Shown one piece after another: positions 1 to 11,411 of a DNA stretch of 11,411 bases. A program made the position numbers and the translations under genes. The stretch spans positions 1 through 11,411 of the forward strand of contig CAZQEL010000022.1 in NCBI GenBank assembly GCA_964591795.1, read 5' to 3'. The stretch comes from an uncultured archaeon (GTDB lineage: Archaea; Iainarchaeota; Iainarchaeia; Iainarchaeales; CSSED10-239). Below the pieces are notes generated by a model, which was not told the origin of the DNA, did not search any database, and saw only the letters and a program-made list of their open reading frames with translations. Every line of letters starts with the position of its first letter. Position 1 is the first letter of the stretch.

Positions 1-483
1 TTAAAAAGAGATTACAATACCCGTTTTTAGGGGTGATTGATTAATTTACTTAAAGTCCCACTATATATTTTTATAGAGCAGGGAATTAACAAAAAGAAAA
101 TCTCTAACCCTAATCAAAAAAATGGAAATACTCATCGTTATGTTTATTATCATTGCTCAAGAGGAAAAGACAGATTCTGTAAAGAGAAAGCTATAAGAGA
201 AGAAGAGTTACTTAAACAATTATTGGAAATGATTGATAAGATTGATCTTGATGAAATTACCACCCAAGATAAAATTAAAAGAAAAATAACTAAGTTTAGA
301 AAATTTAGTTATAGTGTGTTAGGGCAAGAAACCGAATTTGACAAAAGACCTATCGAAACAGATATCCGAAACTATGCAAAATACATCCTCACAGATGGCA
401 CCAAGGATGATAAGAGGGAACTACTGGGATGTTTGAGAAGTAGAGTAGAGATAAAAGATAAGGGAGTTAATTTAAATAAATGA
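1..483 (+). pseudogene. Decayed C-terminal remnant of a large serine recombinase (second half of the zinc-ribbon plus the coiled-coil region)
   Basis: ORF 37..483 contains 'HRYVYYHCSRGKDRFCKEKAIREEELLKQLLEMIDKIDLDE', which matches the YYxC...C half of the recombinase zinc ribbon followed by the coiled-coil. The upstream CxxC pair is missing ('LLKVPLYIFIEQG' sits where CGxCG is expected). The frame is closed by TAG 28-30 and TGA 34-36, and the only available start is TTG at 37. Frame 3 at 3..41 reads 'KKRLQYPFLGVID*', which resembles the conserved segment just before the zinc ribbon and suggests a frameshift. Confidence 0.55.
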
Positions 484-543
484 AAGAAAGTTTAAAAAAG
501 CCAAAAGGACCTTATTTTACAACAGTAATTAATTTAGTAAGTT

Positions 544-2289
544 ATGATAACCTATGAAGGCTTGATTTTATATTTACAACGCGATAGAATACTGATTAAT
601 ACTATGCGTAAAGATATAAAAGCAAAATTAAAAGATATGCCCGAACTACTTACTATTGGACAAGTAGCTGAAGTTTTTTCTATTCACCCTGATACTCTTA
701 GGAATTGGGATAAAGAAGGGATTTTAGTTCCTTTAAGGGTTGGAACAAGAAAAGACCGAAAATATAGACCTCAAGATATTCAAACCATTATGGATAAAAT
801 GGGTAGTGAACTTACACTTCCCCAACTAGAGCAATTCCTTTGGAAAAGTGCTGATATTCTTCGTGGGAAAATTGATGGTTCTGATTATAAGAAATATATT
901 TTCGGATTGTTATTCTTTAAAAGAATTAGTGATGTTTGGGATGAAGAATATAAAAAAACAAAAAAAGAATATGGGGATAAAAAAATCGCTCGTACTGACT
1001 ATAATCATCGCTTCCAAGTTCCTAGAGAATGTCGCTGGGCTGTTATAGAAGAACAAGCAGAAAATATCGGACAAAAACTTAATGAAATTTTTGATAAATT
1101 AACAAATGCTAATAGCCCAAAACTAGATAAAATTTTTAATGATTTAGATTTTGCTAATAAAGACCGTTTCCCCAACGAAACGACCCAACGATTAATAAAT
1201 CATTTTTCTCAATATAACTTTGGTGATACTTATATAAGTTCGGATTTGCTCGGAGATGCTTATGAATATCTAATTAAACAATTCGCTGCGGATGCTGGAA
1301 AAAAAGGTGGCGAATTCTACACACCACGAGAAGTTGAAAAAGTTATTGTTGAAATTTTAAAACCTCATAAAAAAGATCACATCTATGACCCTACTGTTGG
1401 ATCAGGAGGATTTCTCCTTGAGGCTTTTCATTATTTAAAAAATAAAGAAAATGAAACTGTGGCGAGAACACTTTATTTAAATGGGCAAGAGTTAAATATT
1501 GGAACTTTCGCAATTGCGAAAATAAATATGTTTTTGCATGGGTTAGACGGGGCTGATATTCAAAGAGGAGATACTTTAGCAAATCCACAATTCTTAAATC
1601 CAAATGGGAGTTTGAAAACTTTTGATATTGTTGTAGCAAATTTTCCATATTCTATTAAAGATTATGAATATAATATTCTAAAAATAAATAAATATGGAAG
1701 AATTGATGGATATGAAATGCCCCCTAAAAGAAATGCCGACTATGCTTTTATCTTACATATAATTAAATCAATGAATTCAAATGGAAGAGCAGGTGTAGTG
1801 GTTCCTCATGGAGTGCTTTTTAAAACTGATGCATCAAAAAGAATTCGAGAACAAATTTTAAAAAATGACTTAATTGAAGCTGTTATTGGTATGCCATCAA
1901 AATTATTTTATGGAGTTGGTATTCCTGTAGCGATTATTATTTTCAATAAAAATAAACCAAAAGAAAGAAAAAATAAAGTTTTGATTATTAATGCTGAAAA
2001 AGAATATTCAGAAGGTAAAAATCAAAACTCACTTCGTGTTCAAGATATCCAAAAGATTGTTAAAACTTATGATAATTATAAGGATGTAGAAAATTATGCT
2101 CGGGTGGTAGATTTAAAAGAAATTGAAGAGAATGAATTTAACTTGAATGTAAGTCGTTATATTGATAATGGAGAAAAAGAAGAAAAAATTGATGTTTCTG
2201 CTGTTAAGAAAGAATTGGTTAAACTAGAAAAAGAGCGAACAGAGATTGATAAAAAAGTCGAGGATTATTTAAAAGTATTAAAGTATTAA
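544..2289 (+). CDS. hsdM: Type I restriction-modification system methyltransferase subunit HsdM (N6-adenine) with an extra N-terminal MerR/excisionase-type HTH
   Basis: HsdM_N-like region 'LEQFLWKSADILRGKIDGSDYKKYIFGLLFFKRISDVWDEE'. 'GEFYTPREV' is present. The AdoMet motif I 'IYDPTVGSGGFL' lies at 1381..1416. The catalytic motif IV variant 'NFPY' lies at 1639..1650. 'YAFILHI' and 'GRAGVVVPHGVLF' are also present. The HTH 'LTIGQVAEVFSIHPDTLRNWDKEGILVPL...RKYRPQDIQTIM' spans about 640..800. Alternative starts are ATG 604 and ATG 637. Confidence 0.95.
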   Translation: MITYEGLILYLQRDRILINTMRKDIKAKLKDMPELLTIGQVAEVFSIHPDTLRNWDKEGILVPLRVGTRKDRKYRPQDIQTIMDKMGSELTLPQLEQFLWKSADILRGKIDGSDYKKYIFGLLFFKRISDVWDEEYKKTKKEYGDKKIARTDYNHRFQVPRECRWAVIEEQAENIGQKLNEIFDKLTNANSPKLDKIFNDLDFANKDRFPNETTQRLINHFSQYNFGDTYISSDLLGDAYEYLIKQFAADAGKKGGEFYTPREVEKVIVEILKPHKKDHIYDPTVGSGGFLLEAFHYLKNKENETVARTLYLNGQELNIGTFAIAKINMFLHGLDGADIQRGDTLANPQFLNPNGSLKTFDIVVANFPYSIKDYEYNILKINKYGRIDGYEMPPKRNADYAFILHIIKSMNSNGRAGVVVPHGVLFKTDASKRIREQILKNDLIEAVIGMPSKLFYGVGIPVAIIIFNKNKPKERKNKVLIINAEKEYSEGKNQNSLRVQDIQKIVKTYDNYKDVENYARVVDLKEIEENEFNLNVSRYIDNGEKEEKIDVSAVKKELVKLEKERTEIDKKVEDYLKVLKY

Positions 2290-2300
2290 AGTATTAAAGT
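2273..2300. repeat. Tandem octamer AAGTATTA, 3.5 copies, spanning the hsdM stop codon and the junction to the next gene
   Basis: Read directly: AAGTATTA at 2273-2280, 2281-2288 and 2289-2296, then AAGT at 2297-2300. The hsdM TAA is at 2287-2289 and the next ATG is at 2302. Confidence 0.9.
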
Positions 2301-2301
2301 T

Positions 2302-3009
2302 ATGAATAAATTATTTAAATTAAAAATAAATAAATCATCAGAATACTGGGCTTTTATGCTTTTGTTTTTTCTCAGTTTTTCCTGCCTATATTTTTTTAGT
2401 TTTAGACTAGATGATCCTTTTAGAACTGAGTTTTTGAATATTATTGAATATTTAGGGGCTATCTTAATTGCAATGGTTGCTGGGTATTTTGCTTACTCTC
2501 AATTTTTAGAAATACGTTTTGAAAAAATAAAAGAACAAGCTAACCTTAGTTTTAAAAGAGATATGTACGCTAGAGCGATAAATTTATATACAGAAGCTAT
2601 TTCCATCAGATCCGATGAGTTTCCTGTTTTTGCTGAATATACGGAAGTTTTGATTGCAATTTCTGATTTTGATAAATTTGATTTGATAGCTAAAGATTTA
2701 AAAAAATATGCAGTTGATAAAAGAGAACATTTGATTTGTTGCTACTTGATGTTTTCTAGGTTCATGTTGCAAGAAAATCTTGGTTTTGCTAAAAAACATA
2801 TACTTGAAACAATAGAATCTTATGAAAAAAATAAAAATATTTTTGTATTAGGTAATTGGGATTTTTCTGATATAAAAAGGACAGAAAATTATAAGTCTCT
2901 TCAAGGAGAAGCAAAAAAGATTTTTGATAATTATATAAAATTTGTAACAGGACAGTTGAAGAATGATTCGTTAAGTAAGTTTTTGAATGGCGATTACATT
3001 TTAAGTTAA
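2302..3009 (+). CDS. Hypothetical membrane protein with two N-terminal TM helices and a cytoplasmic TPR-like helical domain
   Basis: Hydrophobic segments are 'YWAFMLLFFLSFSCLYFFSF' (about 2344..2403) and 'IIEYLGAILIAMVAGYFAYSQF' (about 2440..2505). 'FKRDMYARAINLYTEAISIRSDEF' fits the TPR consensus pattern (Y..AI..Y..AI). It is a long ORF with no stops that fills the gap exactly, 12 nt after hsdM. Confidence 0.75.
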   Translation: MNKLFKLKINKSSEYWAFMLLFFLSFSCLYFFSFRLDDPFRTEFLNIIEYLGAILIAMVAGYFAYSQFLEIRFEKIKEQANLSFKRDMYARAINLYTEAISIRSDEFPVFAEYTEVLIAISDFDKFDLIAKDLKKYAVDKREHLICCYLMFSRFMLQENLGFAKKHILETIESYEKNKNIFVLGNWDFSDIKRTENYKSLQGEAKKIFDNYIKFVTGQLKNDSLSKFLNGDYILS

Positions 3010-3016
3010 TTTAAAA

Positions 3017-3307
3017 ATGAAAAATCAAGAATATTACAACAAAATATTTAATGAATACAAAGAATTAGAAGCTAAAACTTTTATTCCTGTTAATGATGTT
3101 GTTAAGGGTAAAAAAATAATAGGTGTTCATATTAAACCCGAAGATCTCTTTCGTCGAGATGAAGTTAGAGAAGAATTAAGAAAGGGTTTAAATTTTCTTT
3201 CTAATGAACAATTAGAATTTTTGTATGACGATAGTGATTCTTTATTGGTTTTAGAAGCGGTAAAAACTTTGGCTAATAGAGATTTAATAAATAACAATAT
3301 TAACTAA
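3017..3307 (+). CDS. Hypothetical small protein (96 aa), family not recognised
   Basis: The ORF starts 7 nt after the upstream stop and ends 1 nt before the next ATG, so it fits the operon packing. I recognise no motifs. Residue counts are about 18 acidic and 15 basic. Confidence 0.6.
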   Translation: MKNQEYYNKIFNEYKELEAKTFIPVNDVVKGKKIIGVHIKPEDLFRRDEVREELRKGLNFLSNEQLEFLYDDSDSLLVLEAVKTLANRDLINNNIN

Positions 3308-3308
3308 T

Positions 3309-4379
3309 ATGCCAACACTTTCAACAAGGTCAACTTCTAGAGAAACAATGGAAATGGATCCCATTGTATTAAGAGAAACAACTACAACTAGATTGACTTT
3401 TTATCCATGTTGGGTTAGTTCATCAAGTAACCCATTGAGAGGAGGTTTTAAATTTGAAAGAAAAAGCCCATTAGATACTTGGGAAGCTTTTGATTCTAAA
3501 CCGCTATCTAGTTTAAAAAAAGACGAAGCATATATTTTACCTTTAAAAGGCGACGAAATATCTTCTCTCTTGTTTAATTTAGAAAATATTAAAGAAATTC
3601 TTGAAAAGTACGGACATTCTTATGGTGAAAGAAATATTATTTTTAGTGAAAAAAATGCAGAAAATGTTTTATTACAAATAGGTGAAATAGATAATCGAGA
3701 TTTAGTTATTCAACAATTAAAAAAATTAGAAGAAAATAATTTTAAGAATATAAGTTCTCTCGTTGACATAACAAAATTAGACAAAATTATTGAAGAATTT
3801 GAGAAAAACTTAAATAATTCAGATGAAAGTTTCTGGCAAAACTTTTTTGAAGACAAAGATGGTGTTTGGGTTTTACAACAAATTTTTTCATTTCCTGTTC
3901 TTTTTTTGCAAGGAGAGGCATATGTTGGCGGAAAAAATACTAAAGGGCGTCAAGGAAGAGGCGGTGTTGCCACAGATTATTTATTTAAAAATCATTCAAA
4001 TGATAGTTTTGCTGTTGTAGAAATAAAAACTCCAAAAACCAAGTTAGTAAAAAATTATTTGTATAGAGGTGATTTTGAAGGAGAAACCAATTGTATCCAT
4101 GAATTAGAAAAAGATTTGTATGGAGGCGTTATTCAATTAGAAAATCAAATACATACAGCGATAGACAAATTTAAAGATGAATTAGGGGAAGATTTTAAGG
4201 AATTAAACATGATTGATCCTTGTGGCGTGTTATTAATTGGTAATAAAGAAGATTTAAATATTAGTCAGAAAAAAACTTTTAATTTGTTTAGAAAAACATT
4301 GGGGAAAAATTTAATTTATACCTTTGATGAACTTTTATTTAAAATTAAGCAATTTCGAACATTTTATAATGAAAACTAA
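3309..4379 (+). CDS. Shedu-like (SduA / DUF4263) PD-(D/E)xK nuclease-domain protein with an unrecognised N-terminal domain
   Basis: The C-terminal half reads 'ESFWQNFFEDKDGVWVLQQIF...GVATDYLF...FAVVEIKTPKTKL...GGVIQLENQIH...PCGVLLIGNKEDL...NLIYTFDELL'. The candidate catalytic residues are D (3975-3977) and ExK (E 4020-4022, K 4026-4028), followed by Q. A terminal 'iiG...TYDELL'-type motif is as I recall for DUF4263. The first 170 aa or so are unassigned. Alternative starts are ATG 3348 and ATG 3354. Confidence 0.7.
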   Translation: MPTLSTRSTSRETMEMDPIVLRETTTTRLTFYPCWVSSSSNPLRGGFKFERKSPLDTWEAFDSKPLSSLKKDEAYILPLKGDEISSLLFNLENIKEILEKYGHSYGERNIIFSEKNAENVLLQIGEIDNRDLVIQQLKKLEENNFKNISSLVDITKLDKIIEEFEKNLNNSDESFWQNFFEDKDGVWVLQQIFSFPVLFLQGEAYVGGKNTKGRQGRGGVATDYLFKNHSNDSFAVVEIKTPKTKLVKNYLYRGDFEGETNCIHELEKDLYGGVIQLENQIHTAIDKFKDELGEDFKELNMIDPCGVLLIGNKEDLNISQKKTFNLFRKTLGKNLIYTFDELLFKIKQFRTFYNEN

Positions 4380-5529
4380 CCAAATACAAAAGAATATTCC
4401 AAAAGGTTGGGGAGAAAAACAATTTAATGATTGTATTGTTTTACCTACAAAACTTAAAGGACTTAAAAAATCACAATATAAATTAAGTGGTAAATATCCT
4501 ATTTTCGATCAAGGTCAAAGCTACATAAGTGGATATACAGATAATAATGATTTTTTGAATGATAATTCTCCAGTAATATTGTTTGGGGATCACACAAGAA
4601 TTGTTAAATTAATAAAATCACCCTTTGTTTTAGGAGCTGATGGTACTAAAGTTTTTTGGGTAAACGAGAATATTGATATTGATTTCTTTTTTTATTCTTT
4701 ATTAAATACCGAAATACCGAACACTGGCTACAATAGACATTTTAAATTTCTAAAGGAGAAAAAGTTTTTAATTCCAGAAGATATAAACGAACAAAAACAA
4801 ATTGCGAAAATTTTGAAAACAGTTGATAAAGAAATGGAAAAAACTGACGAGATTATAGGGGGAACGGAAAAGTTGAAAAAAGGTTTGATGCAAAAACTTT
4901 TTGAGAAAAAAGAGGGGTGGAATGTATTGAAAATAAAAGATTCTCCGATTAAACTAATTGATGGCGATCGAGGTGTAAATTATCCGAAAGTCAGTGACTT
5001 TACTACTGGTGGTTATTGTCTTTTTCTGAGTAATAAGAATATAAAAAATGATGAATTTATTTTTTCAGATTCACAATTTATTTCTAAAGAAAAAGATGAG
5101 TTATTAAGAAAAGGAAGGCTTCAAAAAGAAGATGTTATTTTAACAACAAGAGGAACTGTTGGAAGTGTGGCTTTTTATGATAAAACCGTAAGTTTTCAGA
5201 ATATAAGAATAAATTCAGGGATGCTTATTTTAAGATCGTTTGACGGAATAGAACCTATATATTTATATCAATTATTGAAAAGTTCTTTATTAAAAAACAA
5301 ATTTAAGGAGATCGTTTCAGGATCTGCCCAACCCCAGCTCCCGATAAGAACACTTGAACAAGTTTTTATACCAATACCACCAGAAGGTGAGCAACAAAAA
5401 ATTGCAGAAATTCTTTCGGCTGTCGATGAAAAAATTTTAGTTAATAAAAAATTAAAAGAAAAACTAACCCAACTCAAAAAAGGTCTGTCGCAAGATCTTT
5501 TGAGTGGTAAAGTACGAACAAAAAAATGA
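4369..5529 (+). CDS. hsdS: Type I restriction-modification system specificity subunit HsdS (two target-recognition domains)
   Basis: The N-terminus 'MKTNQIQKNIPKGWGEKQFNDC' is typical for HsdS. TRD1 contains 'GKYPIFDQGQSYISGYTD...ILFGDHT'. TRD2 contains 'LIDGDRGVNYP...ILTTRGTVGSVAFYD'. There are two conserved helical spacers: 'EQKQIAKILKTVDKEMEKTDEIIGGTEKLKKGLMQKLF' from 4789 and 'EQQKIAEILSAVDEKILVNKKLKEKLTQLKKGLSQDLLSG' from 5389. I prefer ATG 4369 to the track start TTG 4324, because codons 4324-4368 overlap the previous gene and add a non-HsdS-like leader. Confidence 0.9.
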   Translation: MKTNQIQKNIPKGWGEKQFNDCIVLPTKLKGLKKSQYKLSGKYPIFDQGQSYISGYTDNNDFLNDNSPVILFGDHTRIVKLIKSPFVLGADGTKVFWVNENIDIDFFFYSLLNTEIPNTGYNRHFKFLKEKKFLIPEDINEQKQIAKILKTVDKEMEKTDEIIGGTEKLKKGLMQKLFEKKEGWNVLKIKDSPIKLIDGDRGVNYPKVSDFTTGGYCLFLSNKNIKNDEFIFSDSQFISKEKDELLRKGRLQKEDVILTTRGTVGSVAFYDKTVSFQNIRINSGMLILRSFDGIEPIYLYQLLKSSLLKNKFKEIVSGSAQPQLPIRTLEQVFIPIPPEGEQQKIAEILSAVDEKILVNKKLKEKLTQLKKGLSQDLLSGKVRTKK

Positions 5530-6986
5530 ATAATATATATATAAAATCAATGCCAGTCAATATGTTTAATGGGATTTTTAACATCACCGTTACTTTTGAT
5601 AATGGATTAAATATAATAAGTGGGGTAAATGGTACTGGAAAGACACAAATATTAAGGTTGCTTAAAGAGAATAAAGGGATTACTTCTACTGCAGAAAAAT
5701 CATCAGACCAACTTTCTATTTTTGCCATTAGTCCAAAAAGAAATACAGAGAAAGAAGCAATCGATAGTATCTTTCAACAAGTTCGAACACAAAACAAAAC
5801 AATCAAAACTTTTTTTGGGCAAATTAAGGGATTTCAAATTAAAGATTCTGGTTTTGAAAATTATCCATCCTTTGCAGAATTATTTATACAGGAATATGAT
5901 TCTTTAATGCAGGATGGTGTAACTGGTCATAAACTAGCAATAGAGAAAACTTCTGAAAGTTTCAATGAAGTTCTATCAAAAGTATTTCCTGAATACAAAA
6001 TTAAAGCCACATGGGTTTTAGGCGAAACTGATCTTTCTGGGAAGTTAGATTTAAAAATCAGTAAGTATTCAACAGAACCCATATCAATAGAATATCTCAG
6101 TACAGGAGAACGCGAAATGTTTGCCCTTCTGTTTGCTATCTTTGTGAGTAGGCACGAAGAAGATATTTATTTAATAGATGAGCCAGAAATTCACCTAAAT
6201 TGGGATTTAGAAAAAGGACTTTTCCAATTCTTTGATTGGTTTGGTACTAAATTTGAAAAACAAATAATTATTGTGACGCACTCCAGGATTATTTTTAAGA
6301 AAGAGTTTTATCCTAGAACCCAATTTTTAGTTTGGAAAAATAATCAGATAATTAGCCGTTCTGAAATAACTGATAAGCAAAAAGAATCAATAGCGGGTGA
6401 ATTGTCTGACTCGATTAGCATTTCAGATTTTTCTAAGACAACCTATTTTGTAGAGGATGAAACTCAAAAATTAATTATTAATTTTTTGGCAGAAAAATTT
6501 AATAAAACCGTATCTATAGTTGTTTGTGGCAATAAGTCAAACGTTAAATCAATGTACTCTTTATTATTAAAGGAACAAAGTGATCTTCTATATTTTTTGG
6601 TTGACGGAGACAATGAAGGAAATGGGATCGTAGATCCAAACTTTATTAGCTTAGGTAAATATTGCATAGAGAATTATTTATTAAATATATCAATATTATC
6701 GTCACTTCTTTCTAAAACCGAAGATCAAATAAAAATAATGCTAGTTGATTGTTTGAAAAAAATAAGCTCAAATAAACATTTTTTGGTTTATAAAAAACTT
6801 GCGGAAAATAGTAGCGACTTTCCTCTTGATGTTTTAGACACCTATAGCGGTAAGGATCTGTTAAAATGCTTTGCTTCTGATCTCAATAAAACAGTTCCGG
6901 AATTAACGAAAGAAATTCTTGAAAAGATTGCTCTAGAAGATAAGCTCGATGGAATTTTTTCAGAGATAATTCCCGGAATAAAATAA
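5526..6986 (+). CDS. Single-polypeptide fusion of an ABC/SMC-type ATPase and a TOPRIM (DUF4435-like) domain; a PARIS AriA-AriB-like or OLD-family candidate nuclease
   Basis: Walker A 'GVNGTGKT' lies at 5622..5645. The ABC signature-like 'LSTGEREMF' starts at 6096. Walker B 'IYLIDEPEIHL' has DE at 6177..6182. 'IIIVTHS' fits an H-loop. The C-terminal half has 'YFVEDETQ' (E at 6453-6455), 'VVCGNKSNV', 'FLVDGDNEG' (DxD at 6603..6611) and 'CIENYLL' (6663..6680). Together these fit the TOPRIM Glu plus DxD arrangement and the ENY motif I associate with DUF4435. Its ATG overlaps the hsdS stop (ATGA at 5526-5529). Confidence 0.75.
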   Translation: MNNIYIKSMPVNMFNGIFNITVTFDNGLNIISGVNGTGKTQILRLLKENKGITSTAEKSSDQLSIFAISPKRNTEKEAIDSIFQQVRTQNKTIKTFFGQIKGFQIKDSGFENYPSFAELFIQEYDSLMQDGVTGHKLAIEKTSESFNEVLSKVFPEYKIKATWVLGETDLSGKLDLKISKYSTEPISIEYLSTGEREMFALLFAIFVSRHEEDIYLIDEPEIHLNWDLEKGLFQFFDWFGTKFEKQIIIVTHSRIIFKKEFYPRTQFLVWKNNQIISRSEITDKQKESIAGELSDSISISDFSKTTYFVEDETQKLIINFLAEKFNKTVSIVVCGNKSNVKSMYSLLLKEQSDLLYFLVDGDNEGNGIVDPNFISLGKYCIENYLLNISILSSLLSKTEDQIKIMLVDCLKKISSNKHFLVYKKLAENSSDFPLDVLDTYSGKDLLKCFASDLNKTVPELTKEILEKIALEDKLDGIFSEIIPGIK

Positions 6987-6987
6987 T

Positions 6988-9894
6988 ATGAAATTCAACG
7001 AACAATACACAATAGAAAATTACATCATTAAGTTCTTAGGAAAAGAGCTTGATTATGAATACATAAAACCGAAGGATTTTGCAAAACTGCGGGAATTTGA
7101 GAATGAATATATTATTTCTTCTCTTTTACTTAATGCTATAAAAAAGATAAATAACATTTCTGATGACGAAGCAAAATCTATTTTAAGAGAAGTTAGGAAA
7201 ATAGATAATAATGAAGATTTTCTTAAAACTTTCCGTAATGGAATTAATCTTAAAGATTCCGAAACTGGAAAAATGAGAGATTATTTTATTATTGATTTCG
7301 ACAATCTTGGAAACAACCATTTTGTTATAACTAACCAATTTTATTTTGAAGGTAATTCTGAAAATATAAGAACGGATGTTTTGGTTTTTTTAAATGGTTT
7401 ACCTGTTGTAAATATTGAAGCTAAAAGTCCTACTGTCTCAAGTAGTGTAAATTATGCGAATGCTGTTGGGCAGATCAAAAGATATGAAAGAAACGCTTTT
7501 AAACTTTTCTGGCCAAATTGTTTTAATATTGCTACAGACGGATTGGAAACAGTTTATGGAGCAACCTATTCTCCTGCTCAGTATTTCTTAAAATGGAAAG
7601 AGGAAGAATTAAATGAGAAGTATGAAGAAGAACTTGAAATAACTTTATATGCTTTGCTATCGCGAGAGAGATTATTAGATATTATCAGAAATTTTATTCT
7701 TTTTGACAAAGATAAAGAACAAACCATAAAAAAAATTGCTCGTTATCAACAATTAAGAGCTACTAATAAAATCGTAGAGAGAGTTAGAAAAGGAGAAGAT
7801 AAGAGAGGTCTTATTTGGCATACTCAAGGATCAGGGAAATCACTGACTATGTTTTTTACTGCATGGAAATTACGATTTAATAAAAACTTAAAAAATCCAA
7901 AGATATTTATTTTGGTTGATAGAATTGATTTAGATGATCAAATTTATGAAACTTTTGTAAATTGTGGAGGTAAGAATGTTGTTCGGGTTAATTCTCGTCG
8001 TGATTTGGAGAAAAAAATAAAATCTTCAGAAAGAGGTATTTTTATCTCAACTATTCAAAAGTTTTCAGAATTAGGAAATGATGTTAAAAATCTTGATGAA
8101 AATATAATTGTGCTTTCTGATGAAGCTCACCGTGACAATGAAGGAATTTCAGCAATCAATTTAAGAAGCTCAATGGAAAATGCTTTTTTCTTTGGATTTA
8201 CAGGAACCCCTATTGATAGAACTACTTTAAATACTCATAGAAATTTTGGAGCTGAGGGAGAAAGATATCTTGATTACTATTCAATCAAACAAGCTATTGA
8301 TGATGGAACTACTCTTCCTGTTACATATGAAGCAAGATTATCTAAATTCTTTATTGATGAAGAAAAACTTGATAAACAGTTTGAAGAAATGACTGAAGGA
8401 CTTTCTGAAAAAGAAAAAGAGCAAATATCTAAAAAATACGGGAGAAAAGAAGCAATCGTAAAGCTTGATAAACGAATGGAAGCAATTGCTCAAGATATTA
8501 CTGAACATTATAAGTTATATGTTGAACCTGCTGGATTTAAGGCTCAGATTGTTTGTTATGATAGAGAGGCTACAGCTAAGTATAAGGAACTTTTAGATCA
8601 ACTTGTGTCAAAAGATTGGTCGGCTGTTATTTATTCTGCAGGTGATCCAAATACAAGTCCTGAAGAATTACAAAAATATAATACCACTAAAGCAAAAAGG
8701 GAAAAATTAATTAATGACTTTAAAGATCCAAATAGTCCTTTAAGGTTCTTATTGGTGTGCGATATGTTATTAACTGGTTTTGATGCTCCTATTGAACAGG
8801 TGATGTATTTAGATAAGCCTCTTTGGGATCATAATCTTTTACAAGCTATCGCTAGAACTAACAGAATCTATCCAAACAAAGGAGCTGGGAAAATTATTGA
8901 TTATTACGGAATAACTAAAAGTTTACATAAAGCTTTAGATTTTGATGAAAGTGAAGTTGATTCTGCAATGATTAATATAGATAAACTTAAAGAAGAATTC
9001 AAAGATATTCTATATGAAATTATGGGTATTTTTGTCAATGTAAATATTGAAGACCCTTCAATTGAGAATCTTCGTCGCTGTTTGAAAATATTTGCTGAAA
9101 ATAACGAAAAGCAAAAATTCTTTAGTAATAAATATGGACGACTAAAACTTTTATTTGAAGTCTTGTCTCCTGATCCTTTCCTTAAAGAATTTGTAAGAAA
9201 ATTTGAATGGTTAACTAGTGTTTATATTGCTTTCAGTAAAGAGTTTGGTGAAAGTGCTTATAGTTCAGAAGTCTTGGCTGAATATGGTGAGAAAGTTAAA
9301 AACTTAATTCAACAAAGAGTTGATTATGAAGGAATTACAAAAAATTTCAGAGAATTAAATATAAATGATTTGTATGTGATGGAAAGATTAAACAAAATGG
9401 ATGATGAAGAGAAAGCTTTGAATCTTGAAAAGATGCTTAAACAAGAAATTTCTTTAAATGTTGATACAAATCCTGCTTATAAAAAATTTAGTGAAAGATT
9501 ATCAGCAATCAGAAGAGAATTCGAGAAGAATCAAATTGATTTATCTGAAAGAATTAAACGGTATCAAGAATTACTTGAAGATATAAAAAATAAAGGTGAC
9601 GAAGCTAAAGAACTTGGATATTCATTAAAAGAATATGGTCTTTATGTAATTTCAGAAGAATTTATTAAAGGAGATAAAGATTTAATAAGAGATTTTATTC
9701 AAGAGATGTCTAAAAGAATTGAAAATGTACTTGATGCTGGGTGGCAAGAATCTTCTAAAAGAGATGAATTCTTGAAAGAAGTTAAGAGAATTATTCAAGA
9801 ATTAATATTAAAAGAATATAAAGAAAAAATAGAGGTTTCTGATTTCCATAAATATCTAAATCGTTTAGTGGATATTGTAATAAAAAAATTCTAA
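6988..9894 (+). CDS. hsdR: Type I restriction enzyme endonuclease/translocase subunit HsdR
   Basis: The N-terminal PD-(D/E)xK is 'RTDVLVFLNGLPVVNIEAKSP' (D 7375-7377, E 7417-7419, K 7423-7425). SF2 helicase motif I is 'HTQGSGKSLTM' (GK at 7834-7839). Motif II is 'DEAH' at 8119..8130. Motif III is 'GFTGTP'. Motif VI is 'QAIARTNR'. 'LLVCDMLLTGFDAP' is present. The C-terminal helical region 'LFEVLSPDPFL' is typical of the HsdR C-terminal domain. Confidence 0.95.
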   Translation: MKFNEQYTIENYIIKFLGKELDYEYIKPKDFAKLREFENEYIISSLLLNAIKKINNISDDEAKSILREVRKIDNNEDFLKTFRNGINLKDSETGKMRDYFIIDFDNLGNNHFVITNQFYFEGNSENIRTDVLVFLNGLPVVNIEAKSPTVSSSVNYANAVGQIKRYERNAFKLFWPNCFNIATDGLETVYGATYSPAQYFLKWKEEELNEKYEEELEITLYALLSRERLLDIIRNFILFDKDKEQTIKKIARYQQLRATNKIVERVRKGEDKRGLIWHTQGSGKSLTMFFTAWKLRFNKNLKNPKIFILVDRIDLDDQIYETFVNCGGKNVVRVNSRRDLEKKIKSSERGIFISTIQKFSELGNDVKNLDENIIVLSDEAHRDNEGISAINLRSSMENAFFFGFTGTPIDRTTLNTHRNFGAEGERYLDYYSIKQAIDDGTTLPVTYEARLSKFFIDEEKLDKQFEEMTEGLSEKEKEQISKKYGRKEAIVKLDKRMEAIAQDITEHYKLYVEPAGFKAQIVCYDREATAKYKELLDQLVSKDWSAVIYSAGDPNTSPEELQKYNTTKAKREKLINDFKDPNSPLRFLLVCDMLLTGFDAPIEQVMYLDKPLWDHNLLQAIARTNRIYPNKGAGKIIDYYGITKSLHKALDFDESEVDSAMINIDKLKEEFKDILYEIMGIFVNVNIEDPSIENLRRCLKIFAENNEKQKFFSNKYGRLKLLFEVLSPDPFLKEFVRKFEWLTSVYIAFSKEFGESAYSSEVLAEYGEKVKNLIQQRVDYEGITKNFRELNINDLYVMERLNKMDDEEKALNLEKMLKQEISLNVDTNPAYKKFSERLSAIRREFEKNQIDLSERIKRYQELLEDIKNKGDEAKELGYSLKEYGLYVISEEFIKGDKDLIRDFIQEMSKRIENVLDAGWQESSKRDEFLKEVKRIIQELILKEYKEKIEVSDFHKYLNRLVDIVIKKF

Positions 9895-9896
9895 TA

Positions 9897-10469
9897 ATGA
9901 AAAAAGATATTACTTTAAAAGATAAAAAAATCTCATACACCCTTAAAAAGAGCAAAAGGGCTCGAAGAATGAGGTTGGCGGTTTATTGTGATGGAAGTAT
10001 TGTTGTAACTACACCTCTTGGTTTAAGAGGAAATATTGTAGAAAAGTTTTTAACTGAAAAAACTCAATGGTTATTTGCTAAATTAAATTTTTTTAAACAA
10101 TTTGATGGAAAAGCAATTACAAAGTATAGCCATGAAGACTATTTGAAATTTAAAAAAGAAGCTTATATTTTGGCTGAAAAAAGAATTACTTATTTCAATA
10201 AAATATATAAATTAAAATACAACAAAATAAGTATCAAAAATCAAAAGACTCGTTGGGGTAGTTGCTCAAAAAAAGGTAATTTAAATTTTAATTATAAAAT
10301 AGCTCTTTTACCTCAAAAAATTTCTGATTACATTATTGTTCACGAACTATGTCATCTAAAAGAATTTAATCATTCAAGAAAATTCTGGAATCTAGTTGCT
10401 CAAGTGATGCCTGATTATTTAGAAATAAGAAAAGAACTTAAACAAAGTGGTTATCAATTTTATAAATAG
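9897..10469 (+). CDS. DUF45/YgjP-type (M48/SprT-like) zinc metallopeptidase-fold protein, coupled to hsdR
   Basis: 'TRWGSCSKKGNLNFNYKIALLPQKISDYIIVHELCHLKEFNHSRKFW' carries the HExxH motif 'HELCH' at 10341..10355 and a downstream 'NHS..FW'. This matches the YgjP/DUF45 signature as I remember it. The gene starts 2 nt after the hsdR stop. Confidence 0.85.
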   Translation: MKKDITLKDKKISYTLKKSKRARRMRLAVYCDGSIVVTTPLGLRGNIVEKFLTEKTQWLFAKLNFFKQFDGKAITKYSHEDYLKFKKEAYILAEKRITYFNKIYKLKYNKISIKNQKTRWGSCSKKGNLNFNYKIALLPQKISDYIIVHELCHLKEFNHSRKFWNLVAQVMPDYLEIRKELKQSGYQFYK

Positions 10470-10488
10470 TTTTAATTTTTGAGAATAA

Positions 10489-10599
10489 AAAGATGATCCA
10501 GAAGTGGAGATTGCTGATTTAGAAAAAGGGATTGATGAAATGGTTTATAAAATTTATGATTTAACGGATTAGGAAATAAAAATTGCTGAAGGTAATTAA
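10489..10599 (+). pseudogene. Relic of the extreme C-terminus of an N6-adenine methyltransferase or type IIG restriction-modification protein, with an internal stop
   Basis: Hand translation gives 'KDDPEVEIADLEKGIDEMVYKIYDLTD*EIKIAEGN*'. The internal TAG is at 10570-10572 and the terminal TAA is at 10597-10599. The '(I/L)D..VY.(I/L)Y.LT.EEI..(I/V)E' tail is a common C-terminal ending of Eco57I/PglX-like methyltransferase proteins. The frame is closed upstream by TAA 10486-10488, so only the tail survives. Confidence 0.5.
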
Positions 10600-10659
10600 A
10601 AATTGTAAAAAAACAAATTGAGGAGTTGATGGAAAGGACTGAGAAATAAATTAAACATT

Positions 10660-11310
10660 ATGGGTAAAGATGAAGTTAATAAAATAATAAAGCAAAAAAT
10701 AAACTCTACTATTGGAAATATTGGAAATGGTGTTTTGTATGATTTGTGTCAAAAATATCCATTACACGATAATCCAGATGTTATAAATGCAAAAATATGG
10801 CTTATCGGTAGAGCATATGCTGCAGCTATTGAGAGAAGAAAAAAATATCTTAATGATTTAAATGATGATTTTTACGAAAAACGAGTAATTCCAATGATTA
10901 TGAAATCAAGTATTGATCAAAGGATAGATAAAATTAGAGAATATAAATCAATCACAAAAGAAAATATTTTAAATATATTGAAAGTTCACAAATTTTTATC
11001 CGATTTGTTTTGTGATATTTCAGGACTTAAAAAAAGATCATTAGCATCAAAGTATTTGCATTTTCATTTTCCAGATTTATTTTTTATATATGATTCAAGA
11101 GCAAAAAATGCTCTGTCTAAAATTTCTGATAAATTATCATTAGAATATAAAAAGATTATTGACAGTAAAAAAGTGGATAAAAAATATGCGACATTTTTTT
11201 GTAAATCATATGAAAAAAAGAATGAATTTGAAGATATCCAGCCAGATATCTCTACTAGACAATTTGATTCAATATTAATAGTAATAGCTAATCAAGAACT
11301 AAGAAAATAA
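10660..11310 (+). CDS. Hypothetical protein (216 aa), family not confidently recognised
   Basis: This is a clean 216-codon ORF after a 190-nt gap. Its conserved-looking segments are 'AKIWLIGRAYAAAIERR' and 'LASKYLHFHFPDLFFIYDSRA'. The second resembles an 'SK-x-LHF..P..xPIxDS' motif that I vaguely associate with uncharacterised OGG-fold-annotated proteins. That association is unverified. Confidence 0.6.
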   Translation: MGKDEVNKIIKQKINSTIGNIGNGVLYDLCQKYPLHDNPDVINAKIWLIGRAYAAAIERRKKYLNDLNDDFYEKRVIPMIMKSSIDQRIDKIREYKSITKENILNILKVHKFLSDLFCDISGLKKRSLASKYLHFHFPDLFFIYDSRAKNALSKISDKLSLEYKKIIDSKKVDKKYATFFCKSYEKKNEFEDIQPDISTRQFDSILIVIANQELRK

Positions 11311-11411
11311 AAAACAAAAAAAGAGGTCAACCATCTTTCCCCCTAATCAGCTAACCCCTAACAAGCCAACTTATGCTACAATTAACTCAATGAAAACCAA
11401 AGCAATTCTTG

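Follow-up and report, generated by a model that had tools for sequence, protein, structure and literature searches.

A Type I restriction-modification operon of an uncultured archaeon with a Shedu nuclease and two uncharacterised genes as probable variable cargo

A Type I restriction-modification (R-M) operon was analysed in a window of 11,411 nucleotides (nt) from an uncultured archaeon (GTDB lineage Archaea; Iainarchaeota; Iainarchaeia; Iainarchaeales; CSSED10-239; GenBank assembly GCA_964591795.1, contig CAZQEL010000022.1, positions 1 to 11,411 of the forward strand). Between the genes hsdM and hsdS, this operon contains three open reading frames (ORF1, ORF2 and ORF3) that encode a membrane protein with a region resembling tetratricopeptide repeats (TPR), a protein of 96 amino acids (aa) and a nuclease of the DUF4263/Shedu family (SduA), respectively. 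The stretch from 2290 to 4362 probably fills a variable cargo slot in the operon and consists of three separate modules, with an autonomous Shedu nuclease among them. An initial annotation of this DNA had proposed that the three genes form a multi-component Shedu variant composed of a sensor, an adaptor and the nuclease. This proposal is not supported, since the genes are distributed independently of one another and the nuclease is full-length with its own SduA_N domain. From their predicted domains and folds, the modules of the slot are a member of a TPR family with two to three transmembrane (TM) segments, a small mobile all-alpha protein and a self-contained canonical Shedu nuclease. ORF1 and ORF2 are most likely independent embedded genes and not subunits of Shedu. 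The identities of the genes, the boundaries of the slots, the unrelated genes at the same positions in related operons and the independent distributions of the cargo genes were all directly observed.

Two exchangeable slots in the operon

At 90% identity, HsdM of the window clusters with three further sequences, one of which is encoded on a 108-kb contig (locus L024, GCA_018401295.1). The genes of L024 encode, in this order, a serine recombinase (459 aa), HsdM, proteins of 262 and 296 aa, HsdS, a protein of 325 aa, HsdR and a YgjP-like protein. HsdM and HsdR of the window show 90% and 91% amino acid identity, respectively, with those of L024, and the ratio of nonsynonymous to synonymous substitutions (dN/dS) is 0.05. 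Four blocks of nucleotide similarity between the window and L024 were found by blastn (Table 1), with no matches between the blocks apart from the expected divergence of the target-recognition domains of hsdS. The similarity stops at the stop codon of hsdM and returns 6 nt before the ATG of hsdS, so that the inserted stretch runs from 2290 to 4362. The gene hsdS itself matches L024 only in its first ~60 nt and at its 3' end.

The first slot of L024 is occupied by the 262-aa and 296-aa genes where the window contains ORF1, ORF2 and sduA, and the second slot by the 325-aa gene where the window contains a gene similar to AriAB. No relatives of the L024 cargo genes were found in the window. The scaffold of the operon was also detected at ~70% nucleotide identity in the loci L004 and L023, again with other cargo. 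The first slot contains genes for RhuM, ORF2 and a 375-aa TM protein in L004, an ORF1-family gene alone in L023, and genes for RhuM, ORF2, a TM protein (TM135) and a 141-aa protein in L002, whereas the second slot contains a 197-aa gene, a SIR2-like gene and sduA in these three loci, respectively. Because unrelated genes are present at the same positions in related operons, two exchangeable slots can be distinguished, namely slot A between hsdM and hsdS and slot B between hsdS and hsdR. In this organism, which is low in G+C, the predicted scaffold of the operon runs from the serine recombinase through MerR-HsdM, slot A, HsdS and slot B to HsdR and YgjP.

The interruption of hsdM and hsdS by a cassette of three co-oriented ORFs, as described in the initial annotation, was confirmed, together with the gaps of 12 nt (hsdM/ORF1), 7 nt (ORF1/ORF2) and 1 nt (ORF2/ORF3) and the overlap of 11 nt between ORF3 and hsdS. 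Cargo is packed equally tightly in all of the loci, including the unrelated cargo of L024, L004 and L023, and the last gene of slot A also overlaps hsdS in L004 (11 nt) and L002 (13 nt). Since all cargo is packed as tightly, the spacing is a property of the operon and not a sign of a three-part complex. Tight gene spacing in such compact operons is therefore no evidence of a functional complex.

The cargo of L024 is located at 11748-13428 and 14583-15560 of that contig and shows almost no family matches. The 262-aa protein has no match, the 296-aa protein has a weak match to PD-Lambda-5_A (1e-4) and the 325-aa protein has only a faint match to TPR_8. These proteins are further candidates for embedded genes.

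The Shedu nuclease

The assignment of ORF3 to the DUF4263/Shedu nucleases in the initial annotation is supported by matches to two Pfam families, SduA_N (3.9e-14, residues 8-103) and SduA_C (1.1e-14, residues 170-343), to the PADLOC SduA model PDLC00399 (8.5e-69) and to the SduA of Bacillus cereus in the PDB (8TI8, E = 1.1e-40). The alignment with the B. cereus enzyme covers both domains (domain 1, 2.7e-9; domain 2, 8e-29) with ~30% identity over the full length. The residues E203, D223, E238, K240 and Q276 of ORF3 align with the residues E204, D249, E264/K266 and Q295 of motifs I-IV of the B. cereus protein. ORF3 contains the features by which a Shedu protein is recognised, i.e., a C-terminal DUF4263/SduA_C nuclease domain of the PD-(D/E)XK type, the catalytic motifs I-IV and an N-terminal SduA_N domain of the B. 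cereus type. Its predicted domains and aligned residues indicate that ORF3 is a canonical full-length Shedu nuclease in which all of the catalytic residues are present. The probable autonomy of this nuclease is supported by its own SduA_N domain, its full-length match to the single-gene SduA of B. cereus and its intact catalytic residues.

The SduA of B. cereus B4264 (PDB 8TI8) was described by Gu et al. (bioRxiv 10.1101/2023.08.10.552793), who called Shedu a single-gene system and found 602 of 5,499 Shedu genes inside R-M systems, Type I included. ORF3 shares the domain layout and the motif residues of this protein and has a similar length (356 aa against 382 residues in the PDB chain). The two genes differ in their surroundings, as sduA of the window is located between hsdM and hsdS, with its stop codon overlapping the start of hsdS, and is preceded by a 96-aa gene that ends 1 nt upstream. 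The nearest plasmid-borne homologue of ORF3 is a stand-alone gene of Priestia koreensis with 30% identity.

ORF2, a rare helical protein

Relatives of ORF2 are rare. Six proteins of 88-109 aa were found among 5.8 billion clustered proteins, and they share the core EDLFRRDEVREELRKxLxFLSxEQLKFLY. ORF2 has a net charge of -3, and its AlphaFold2 model (predicted local distance difference test score, pLDDT, 86.7) contains five helices and is all-alpha. The model gave no match at E<0.6 when it was compared with the PDB and BFVD by Foldseek, and searches of PDB sequences and Pfam with the ORF2 profile were empty. Neither ORF2 nor ORF1 matched any family of Pfam, NCBIfam, PHROGs or PADLOC past the curated cut-offs. 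Scans of GTDB species genomes (with peptide patterns), JGI metagenomes and IMG/VR with the ORF2 alignment found nothing, and the same was true of tblastn searches of plasmids and phages.

Besides the window, ORF2 was found in five contexts. The gene order in L002 is RhuM, ORF2, TM135, 141-aa gene, hsdS, sduA (383 aa) and hsdR, and that in L004 and L005 is MerR-hsdM, RhuM, ORF2, a gene for a 375-aa coiled-coil TM protein, hsdS, 197-aa gene and hsdR. In L006-L009, ORF2 is followed by genes encoding a DUF3892 protein (76 aa), SduA (430 aa), a MerR-N6_N4 methylase, an NYN protein and a ResIII helicase. L003 contains DpnI, methylase fragments, ORF2 and a gene for a 148-aa PD-(D/E)XK protein (PD-Lambda-3_A, 3e-13), and L010 contains genes for a DUF3800 protein, a replication-like protein, ORF2 and a 74-aa protein, with no nuclease gene detected in the ORF2 context. 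None of these five contexts contains an ORF1-family gene.

The nucleotide similarity of the window to L002, L003 and L006 is limited to 3014-3294, which is ORF2 itself. L002 and L005 are 88% identical across RhuM and ORF2, and the similarity is lost within ~25 nt past the stop codon of ORF2, at the start of the next gene. Because the similarity stops at its borders, ORF2 behaves as a single-gene unit that moves among R-M and defence loci and is not tied to the gene that follows.

The 375-aa gene of L004 was considered as a diverged sduA and rejected, as its product shows no match to SduA or to PD-(D/E)XK nucleases and has a coiled-coil appearance with hydrophobic TM-like segments.

A separate observation concerns the methylases near ORF2. 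Residues ~35-85 of HsdM (544-800 of the window) form a MerR-type helix-turn-helix (HTH) module. The same type of HTH recurs in L006 (11885-12060), with 55% identity over 51 residues, where it is fused to an unrelated N6_N4 methyltransferase whose gene is located downstream of ORF2, DUF3892 and SduA. HTH-methylases of this type co-occur with ORF2 in the window, L004 and L006.

ORF1 and its membrane TPR family

ORF1 contains two hydrophobic segments at residues ~15-36 and ~44-66. A word-indexed search with ORF1 yielded a single relative with 53% identity, and an exhaustive profile search yielded 157 cluster representatives at E<=0.001, of which 116 were found at E<1e-10. The clusters were defined at 50% identity, and the family thus comprises at least 116 clusters. 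Family members are typically 255-280 aa and were matched over their full length. An alignment of 32 members showed a third, N-terminal TM helix in most of them, together with an invariant Trp and conserved motifs, e.g., GYFAFxQVxExRxDKL. Searches of the PDB with the family profile matched consensus TPR proteins, and a match to Pfam TPR_2 was found in 11 of the 32 members. The description of the first protein as a TPR-like membrane protein was thus correct, and on these matches the TM-TPR label is justified at the level of the family. The AlphaFold2 model of ORF1 itself, based on a 2-sequence alignment, was unusable (pLDDT 47.7).

The ORF1 family was met in metagenome assemblies only, which were scanned with a 12-sequence alignment, and the only named members are a protein of a Candidatus Uhrbacteria metagenome-assembled genome and one labelled Magnetospirillaceae. 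A tblastn search of plasmids with ORF1 found nothing. The dN/dS of ORF1 against its closest relative is 0.20 and that of ORF2 is 0.11-0.48; together with the homologues found and the AlphaFold2 model of ORF2, these values indicate that the two ORFs are real genes whose products are conserved by purifying selection. A lack of such conservation, named in the initial annotation as a result that would refute its proposal, was thus not seen.

The neighbourhoods of ORF1-family genes are mostly housekeeping (~15 contexts besides the window). Such genes are flanked by parA-parB and relA in L012-L017 (Uhrbacteria) and by ruvC and pyk in L021, and ftsA-ftsZ and rplM-rpsI are located upstream of them in L034 and L028, respectively. 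In L018, the ORF1-family gene adjoins genes for an EcoRI-type methylase and a GmrSD-HNH protein. The closest relative, in L001, is followed by genes for a 52-aa zinc-ribbon protein and a 163-aa membrane protein. Neither sduA nor ORF2 was found beside an ORF1-family gene in the ~15 other contexts.

A minor observation was made upstream of the closest ORF1 relative. This contig (L001, 1-120) begins with a sequence that resembles a tRNA 3' end (…GTTCGAATCTCGCC…), and a G+C-rich, hairpin-like stretch comes next. No gene was called there by ARAGORN. This segment may be a remnant of an integration site.

Weighing of alternative explanations

Several observations weigh against the reading of the three genes as unrelated cargo. 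A gene for SduA is present within four genes downstream of ORF2 in three of the six contexts (window, L002 and L006-L009), which is more than we would expect for unrelated genes. The three ORF2-linked SduA proteins belong to different subfamilies, with PDLC00399, PDLC00392 and PDLC00405 as their best PADLOC models. ORF2 and sduA are separated by 1 nt, similar to the 3 nt between the genes KELA and KELB described below. In addition, no close relatives of the SduA of the window were obtained by a peptide-pattern scan of GTDB species genomes, two further loci (L023 and L025) contain an ORF1-family gene immediately before hsdS, and the sample is small, with 6 contexts for ORF2 and ~15 for ORF1. 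The proximity of ORF2 and SduA could reflect a functional link, or only the fact that the same R-M loci often contain both as cargo.

A two-component Shedu has been published, and the picture given in the initial annotation, of a single-gene system without a recognised multi-component variant, is outdated. In KELShedu of Escherichia coli, the 333-bp gene KELA is located 3 bp upstream of the gene for a nuclease of ~360 aa, and its 12.6-kDa product is required for defence (PMC12577705). KELA is a four-stranded beta-sheet protein that is similar to CapW/BrxR and binds double-stranded DNA (PMC12577705). The window shows the same layout, as the 291-bp ORF2 is a small gene immediately upstream of a 356-aa SduA in one operon and ends 1 nt before it. 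Accordingly, ORF2 and SduA could form a two-gene Shedu variant in which ORF2, with a fold unrelated to KELA, serves as inhibitor, adaptor or sensor and ORF1 is a bystander. The occurrence of ORF2 ahead of another PD-(D/E)XK protein in L003 also fits such a variant. The distribution of ORF2 argues against it. ORF2 is directly beside sduA only in the window, it precedes the coiled-coil TM protein without any SduA in L004 and L005, and in L002 and L005 it travels with its upstream neighbour RhuM and not with the downstream gene. ORF2 is slightly acidic, has no detectable relative in the PDB and is predicted to be all-alpha, in contrast to the beta-sheet, DNA-binding KELA, and it is also found without any Shedu. 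The SduA of the window has the same domain layout as the single-gene enzyme of B. cereus. Shedu was found in two of the three Type I loci with ORF2 and in none of the three without it, numbers that are too small to mean anything. Taken together, a two-gene Shedu is an unlikely though not negligible explanation of the locus. A homology of ORF2 to KELA was considered and rejected because of the difference between the predicted all-alpha fold and the beta-sheet described for KELA; this comparison is with the published description of KELA only.

A broader version of this idea is that ORF2 represents a new family of small modulators recruited repeatedly before Shedu or other PD-(D/E)XK effectors in R-M loci. 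This would explain the presence of ORF2 near three SduA subfamilies in half of its contexts, and ORF2 and SduA would then make up a further type of two-component Shedu that is structurally unrelated to the first; the idea is nevertheless rather improbable.

The reading of slot A as variable cargo must also be compared with the possibility that ORF1 assists the Type I enzyme and not Shedu, e.g., as a membrane tether or scaffold for HsdM and HsdS. Such a role would account for the family members found immediately before hsdS. The gene order in L023 is MerR-hsdM, ORF1-family gene, hsdS, SIR2-like gene and hsdR, with a gap of 1 nt before hsdS, and in L025 a DUF3800-like gene and a 97-aa gene precede an ORF1-family gene that is followed by hsdS 2 nt further on. 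The R-M-linked members form two separate clades in a neighbour-joining tree, which suggests repeated recruitment. However, ORF1-family genes adjoin hsdS in only three of ~15 contexts, they are absent from the orthologous operon of L024 and from L004, and for most members the fetched flanks show housekeeping neighbourhoods and contain no hsd gene. A role as R-M accessory is therefore very unlikely.

TPR domains are common protein-interaction modules, and a three-component system with the membrane TPR protein as sensor or anchor, the 96-aa protein as adaptor or inhibitor and SduA as executor would also agree with the tight co-oriented spacing (12, 7 and 1 nt) and with the conservation of all three coding genes, but it is highly implausible, as neither the trio nor ORF1 with either partner was found in any other of the ~20 distinct contexts, the ORF1 family is mostly found among housekeeping genes, and every gene of these operons, unrelated cargo included, has the same spacing.

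Expression and possible function

The tight spacing fits a single transcript, as had been suggested in the initial annotation. No terminator-like sites were found in 2290-4380, and the 51 promoter-like sites found in the cassette do not exceed chance (60.5 expected from shuffled sequences), so that co-transcription of the three-gene stretch is plausible. A separate transcription unit delimited by the promoter and terminator scans was considered and rejected, as the counts are at or below chance.

Under the cargo reading, one message would start upstream of hsdM, so that the cargo would be expressed together with the R-M enzyme. Transcription upstream of hsdM is possibly autoregulated via the MerR-type HTH of HsdM, and the translation of hsdS would be coupled to whichever gene precedes it. 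SduA would act alone as in B. cereus, i.e., as a tetramer whose N-terminal and linker domains keep it inactive until it is released by a cue of infection. In this way SduA would back up Type I restriction with a second nuclease layer that is sequence-independent and needs no Type I recognition site. The PARIS-like protein of slot B may guard against anti-restriction proteins and would thus complement Type I restriction.

Relation to known embedded genes

PrrC and the rlo genes of Campylobacter are known examples of genes embedded in Type I R-M operons. Embedded cassettes are frequent in Type I R-M systems. In BREX, DISARM and Type I R-M systems, 17,432 embedded genes that form 3,568 different cassette combinations were catalogued by Payne et al. 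(2024, bioRxiv 10.1101/2024.01.29.577857), who predicted defence genes from their embedding ('guilt-by-embedding'). TgvAB from VPI-2 of Vibrio cholerae is a two-gene system located inside a Type I operon that has been tested by experiment (PMC11411939). Slot A of the window corresponds to such cassettes, as it contains co-oriented foreign genes between hsd genes and as orthologous and related operons contain other genes at this position. The cargo of these loci likewise includes known defence proteins (Shedu, PARIS-like, RhuM/PDC-S05 and SIR2-like). The window differs in that two slots are filled at once, in that the host belongs to an uncultured lineage and in that ORF1 and ORF2 match no PADLOC v2 candidate family. 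Matches to defence families among the cargo of the window were obtained for SduA and the AriAB-like protein, while ORF1 and ORF2 match no defence model.

PARIS-type systems reportedly respond to anti-restriction proteins, e.g., Ocr (bioRxiv 10.1101/2024.01.29.577857). The slot-B gene matches AAA_21/AAA_15 and, weakly, an OLD-like TOPRIM domain; it resembles AriA/AriB in combining an ABC ATPase and a TOPRIM-type domain, whether fused or paired, as indicated by its PADLOC AriAB match (9e-31). It differs from PARIS in being a single fused protein of 486 aa for which the model coverage is only partial. This gene overlaps the stop codon of hsdS by 4 nt, and a single nucleotide separates its end from hsdR.

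This locus does not add a new kind of system, since both Shedu genes in R-M systems and embedded cassettes have been described before and its nuclease is an ordinary one. It does illustrate clearly how cargo is exchanged in modules within the Type I R-M operon of an uncultured lineage. The two slots have breakpoints at gene boundaries and different cargo in each related locus, which supports the use of such slots for nominating defence genes. Two uncharacterised candidate families are flagged here, one of TM-TPR proteins, which is widespread, and one of helical single-gene proteins, which is rare but found repeatedly in R-M loci.

Other features of the window

All of the genes from the recombinase fragment to the 216-aa ORF are co-directional on the + strand (Table 1).

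Table 1. Features of the window, with positions from the ORF list and the sequence, and blocks of nucleotide similarity with L024
Feature	Position	Strand	Evidence and remarks
Large serine recombinase gene, 3' part	37..483	+	Cut by contig end; Zn_ribbon_recom match
hsdM, Type I methyltransferase with N-terminal MerR-type HTH	544..2289	+	N6_Mtase 9e-106; HsdM_N 6e-26; MerR_1 3e-9; PADLOC MTase_I 3.6e-141
8-nt unit AAGTATTA, ~3.4 copies	2273..2299	+	Read from sequence; spans hsdM stop and left cargo junction
ORF1, 235 aa, two TM segments and TPR-like region	2302..3009	+	Family without Pfam or PADLOC model
ORF2, 96 aa, all-alpha (predicted), slightly acidic, rare family	3017..3307	+	Six homologues
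ORF3 (sduA), full-length Shedu nuclease, 356 aa	3309..4379	+	SduA_N, SduA_C, PADLOC and PDB 8TI8 matches
hsdS, specificity subunit	4369..5529	+	Methylase_S 8e-29; ATG at 4369; start overlaps sduA stop by 11 nt
Slot-B gene, fused ABC-ATPase/TOPRIM, 486 aa, PARIS AriAB-like	5526..6986	+	PADLOC AriAB 9e-31; AriA 3e-19
hsdR, restriction subunit	6988..9894	+	HSDR_N, SWI2_SNF2, ResIII; PADLOC REase_I 2e-135
YgjP-like metallopeptidase gene	9897..10469	+	YgjP-like 6e-46; 2 nt past hsdR; conserved with operon
216-aa ORF	10660..11310	+	No family match; singleton in protein collection
blastn block, L024 9559-11746	113..2289		82.6%
blastn block, L024 13425-13493	4363..4431		85.7%
blastn block, L024 14436-14555	5389..5508		90%
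blastn block, L024 15565-19055	6977..10468		84.4%

The recombinase fragment (113-483) aligns with the 3' end of the full-length Resolvase/Recombinase gene of L024, which encodes 459 aa and is located directly upstream of hsdM. The L024 gene occupies 8559-9938 of its contig and is ~83% identical to the fragment at the nucleotide level. The entire R-M operon is possibly part of a recombinase-borne island. The 216-aa ORF is located just beyond the end of the similarity to L024, which marks another variable position. The unit AAGTATTA is present in two copies in L024, where the copies end at the stop codon of hsdM, and the extra copy in the window is possibly a junction or recombination scar.

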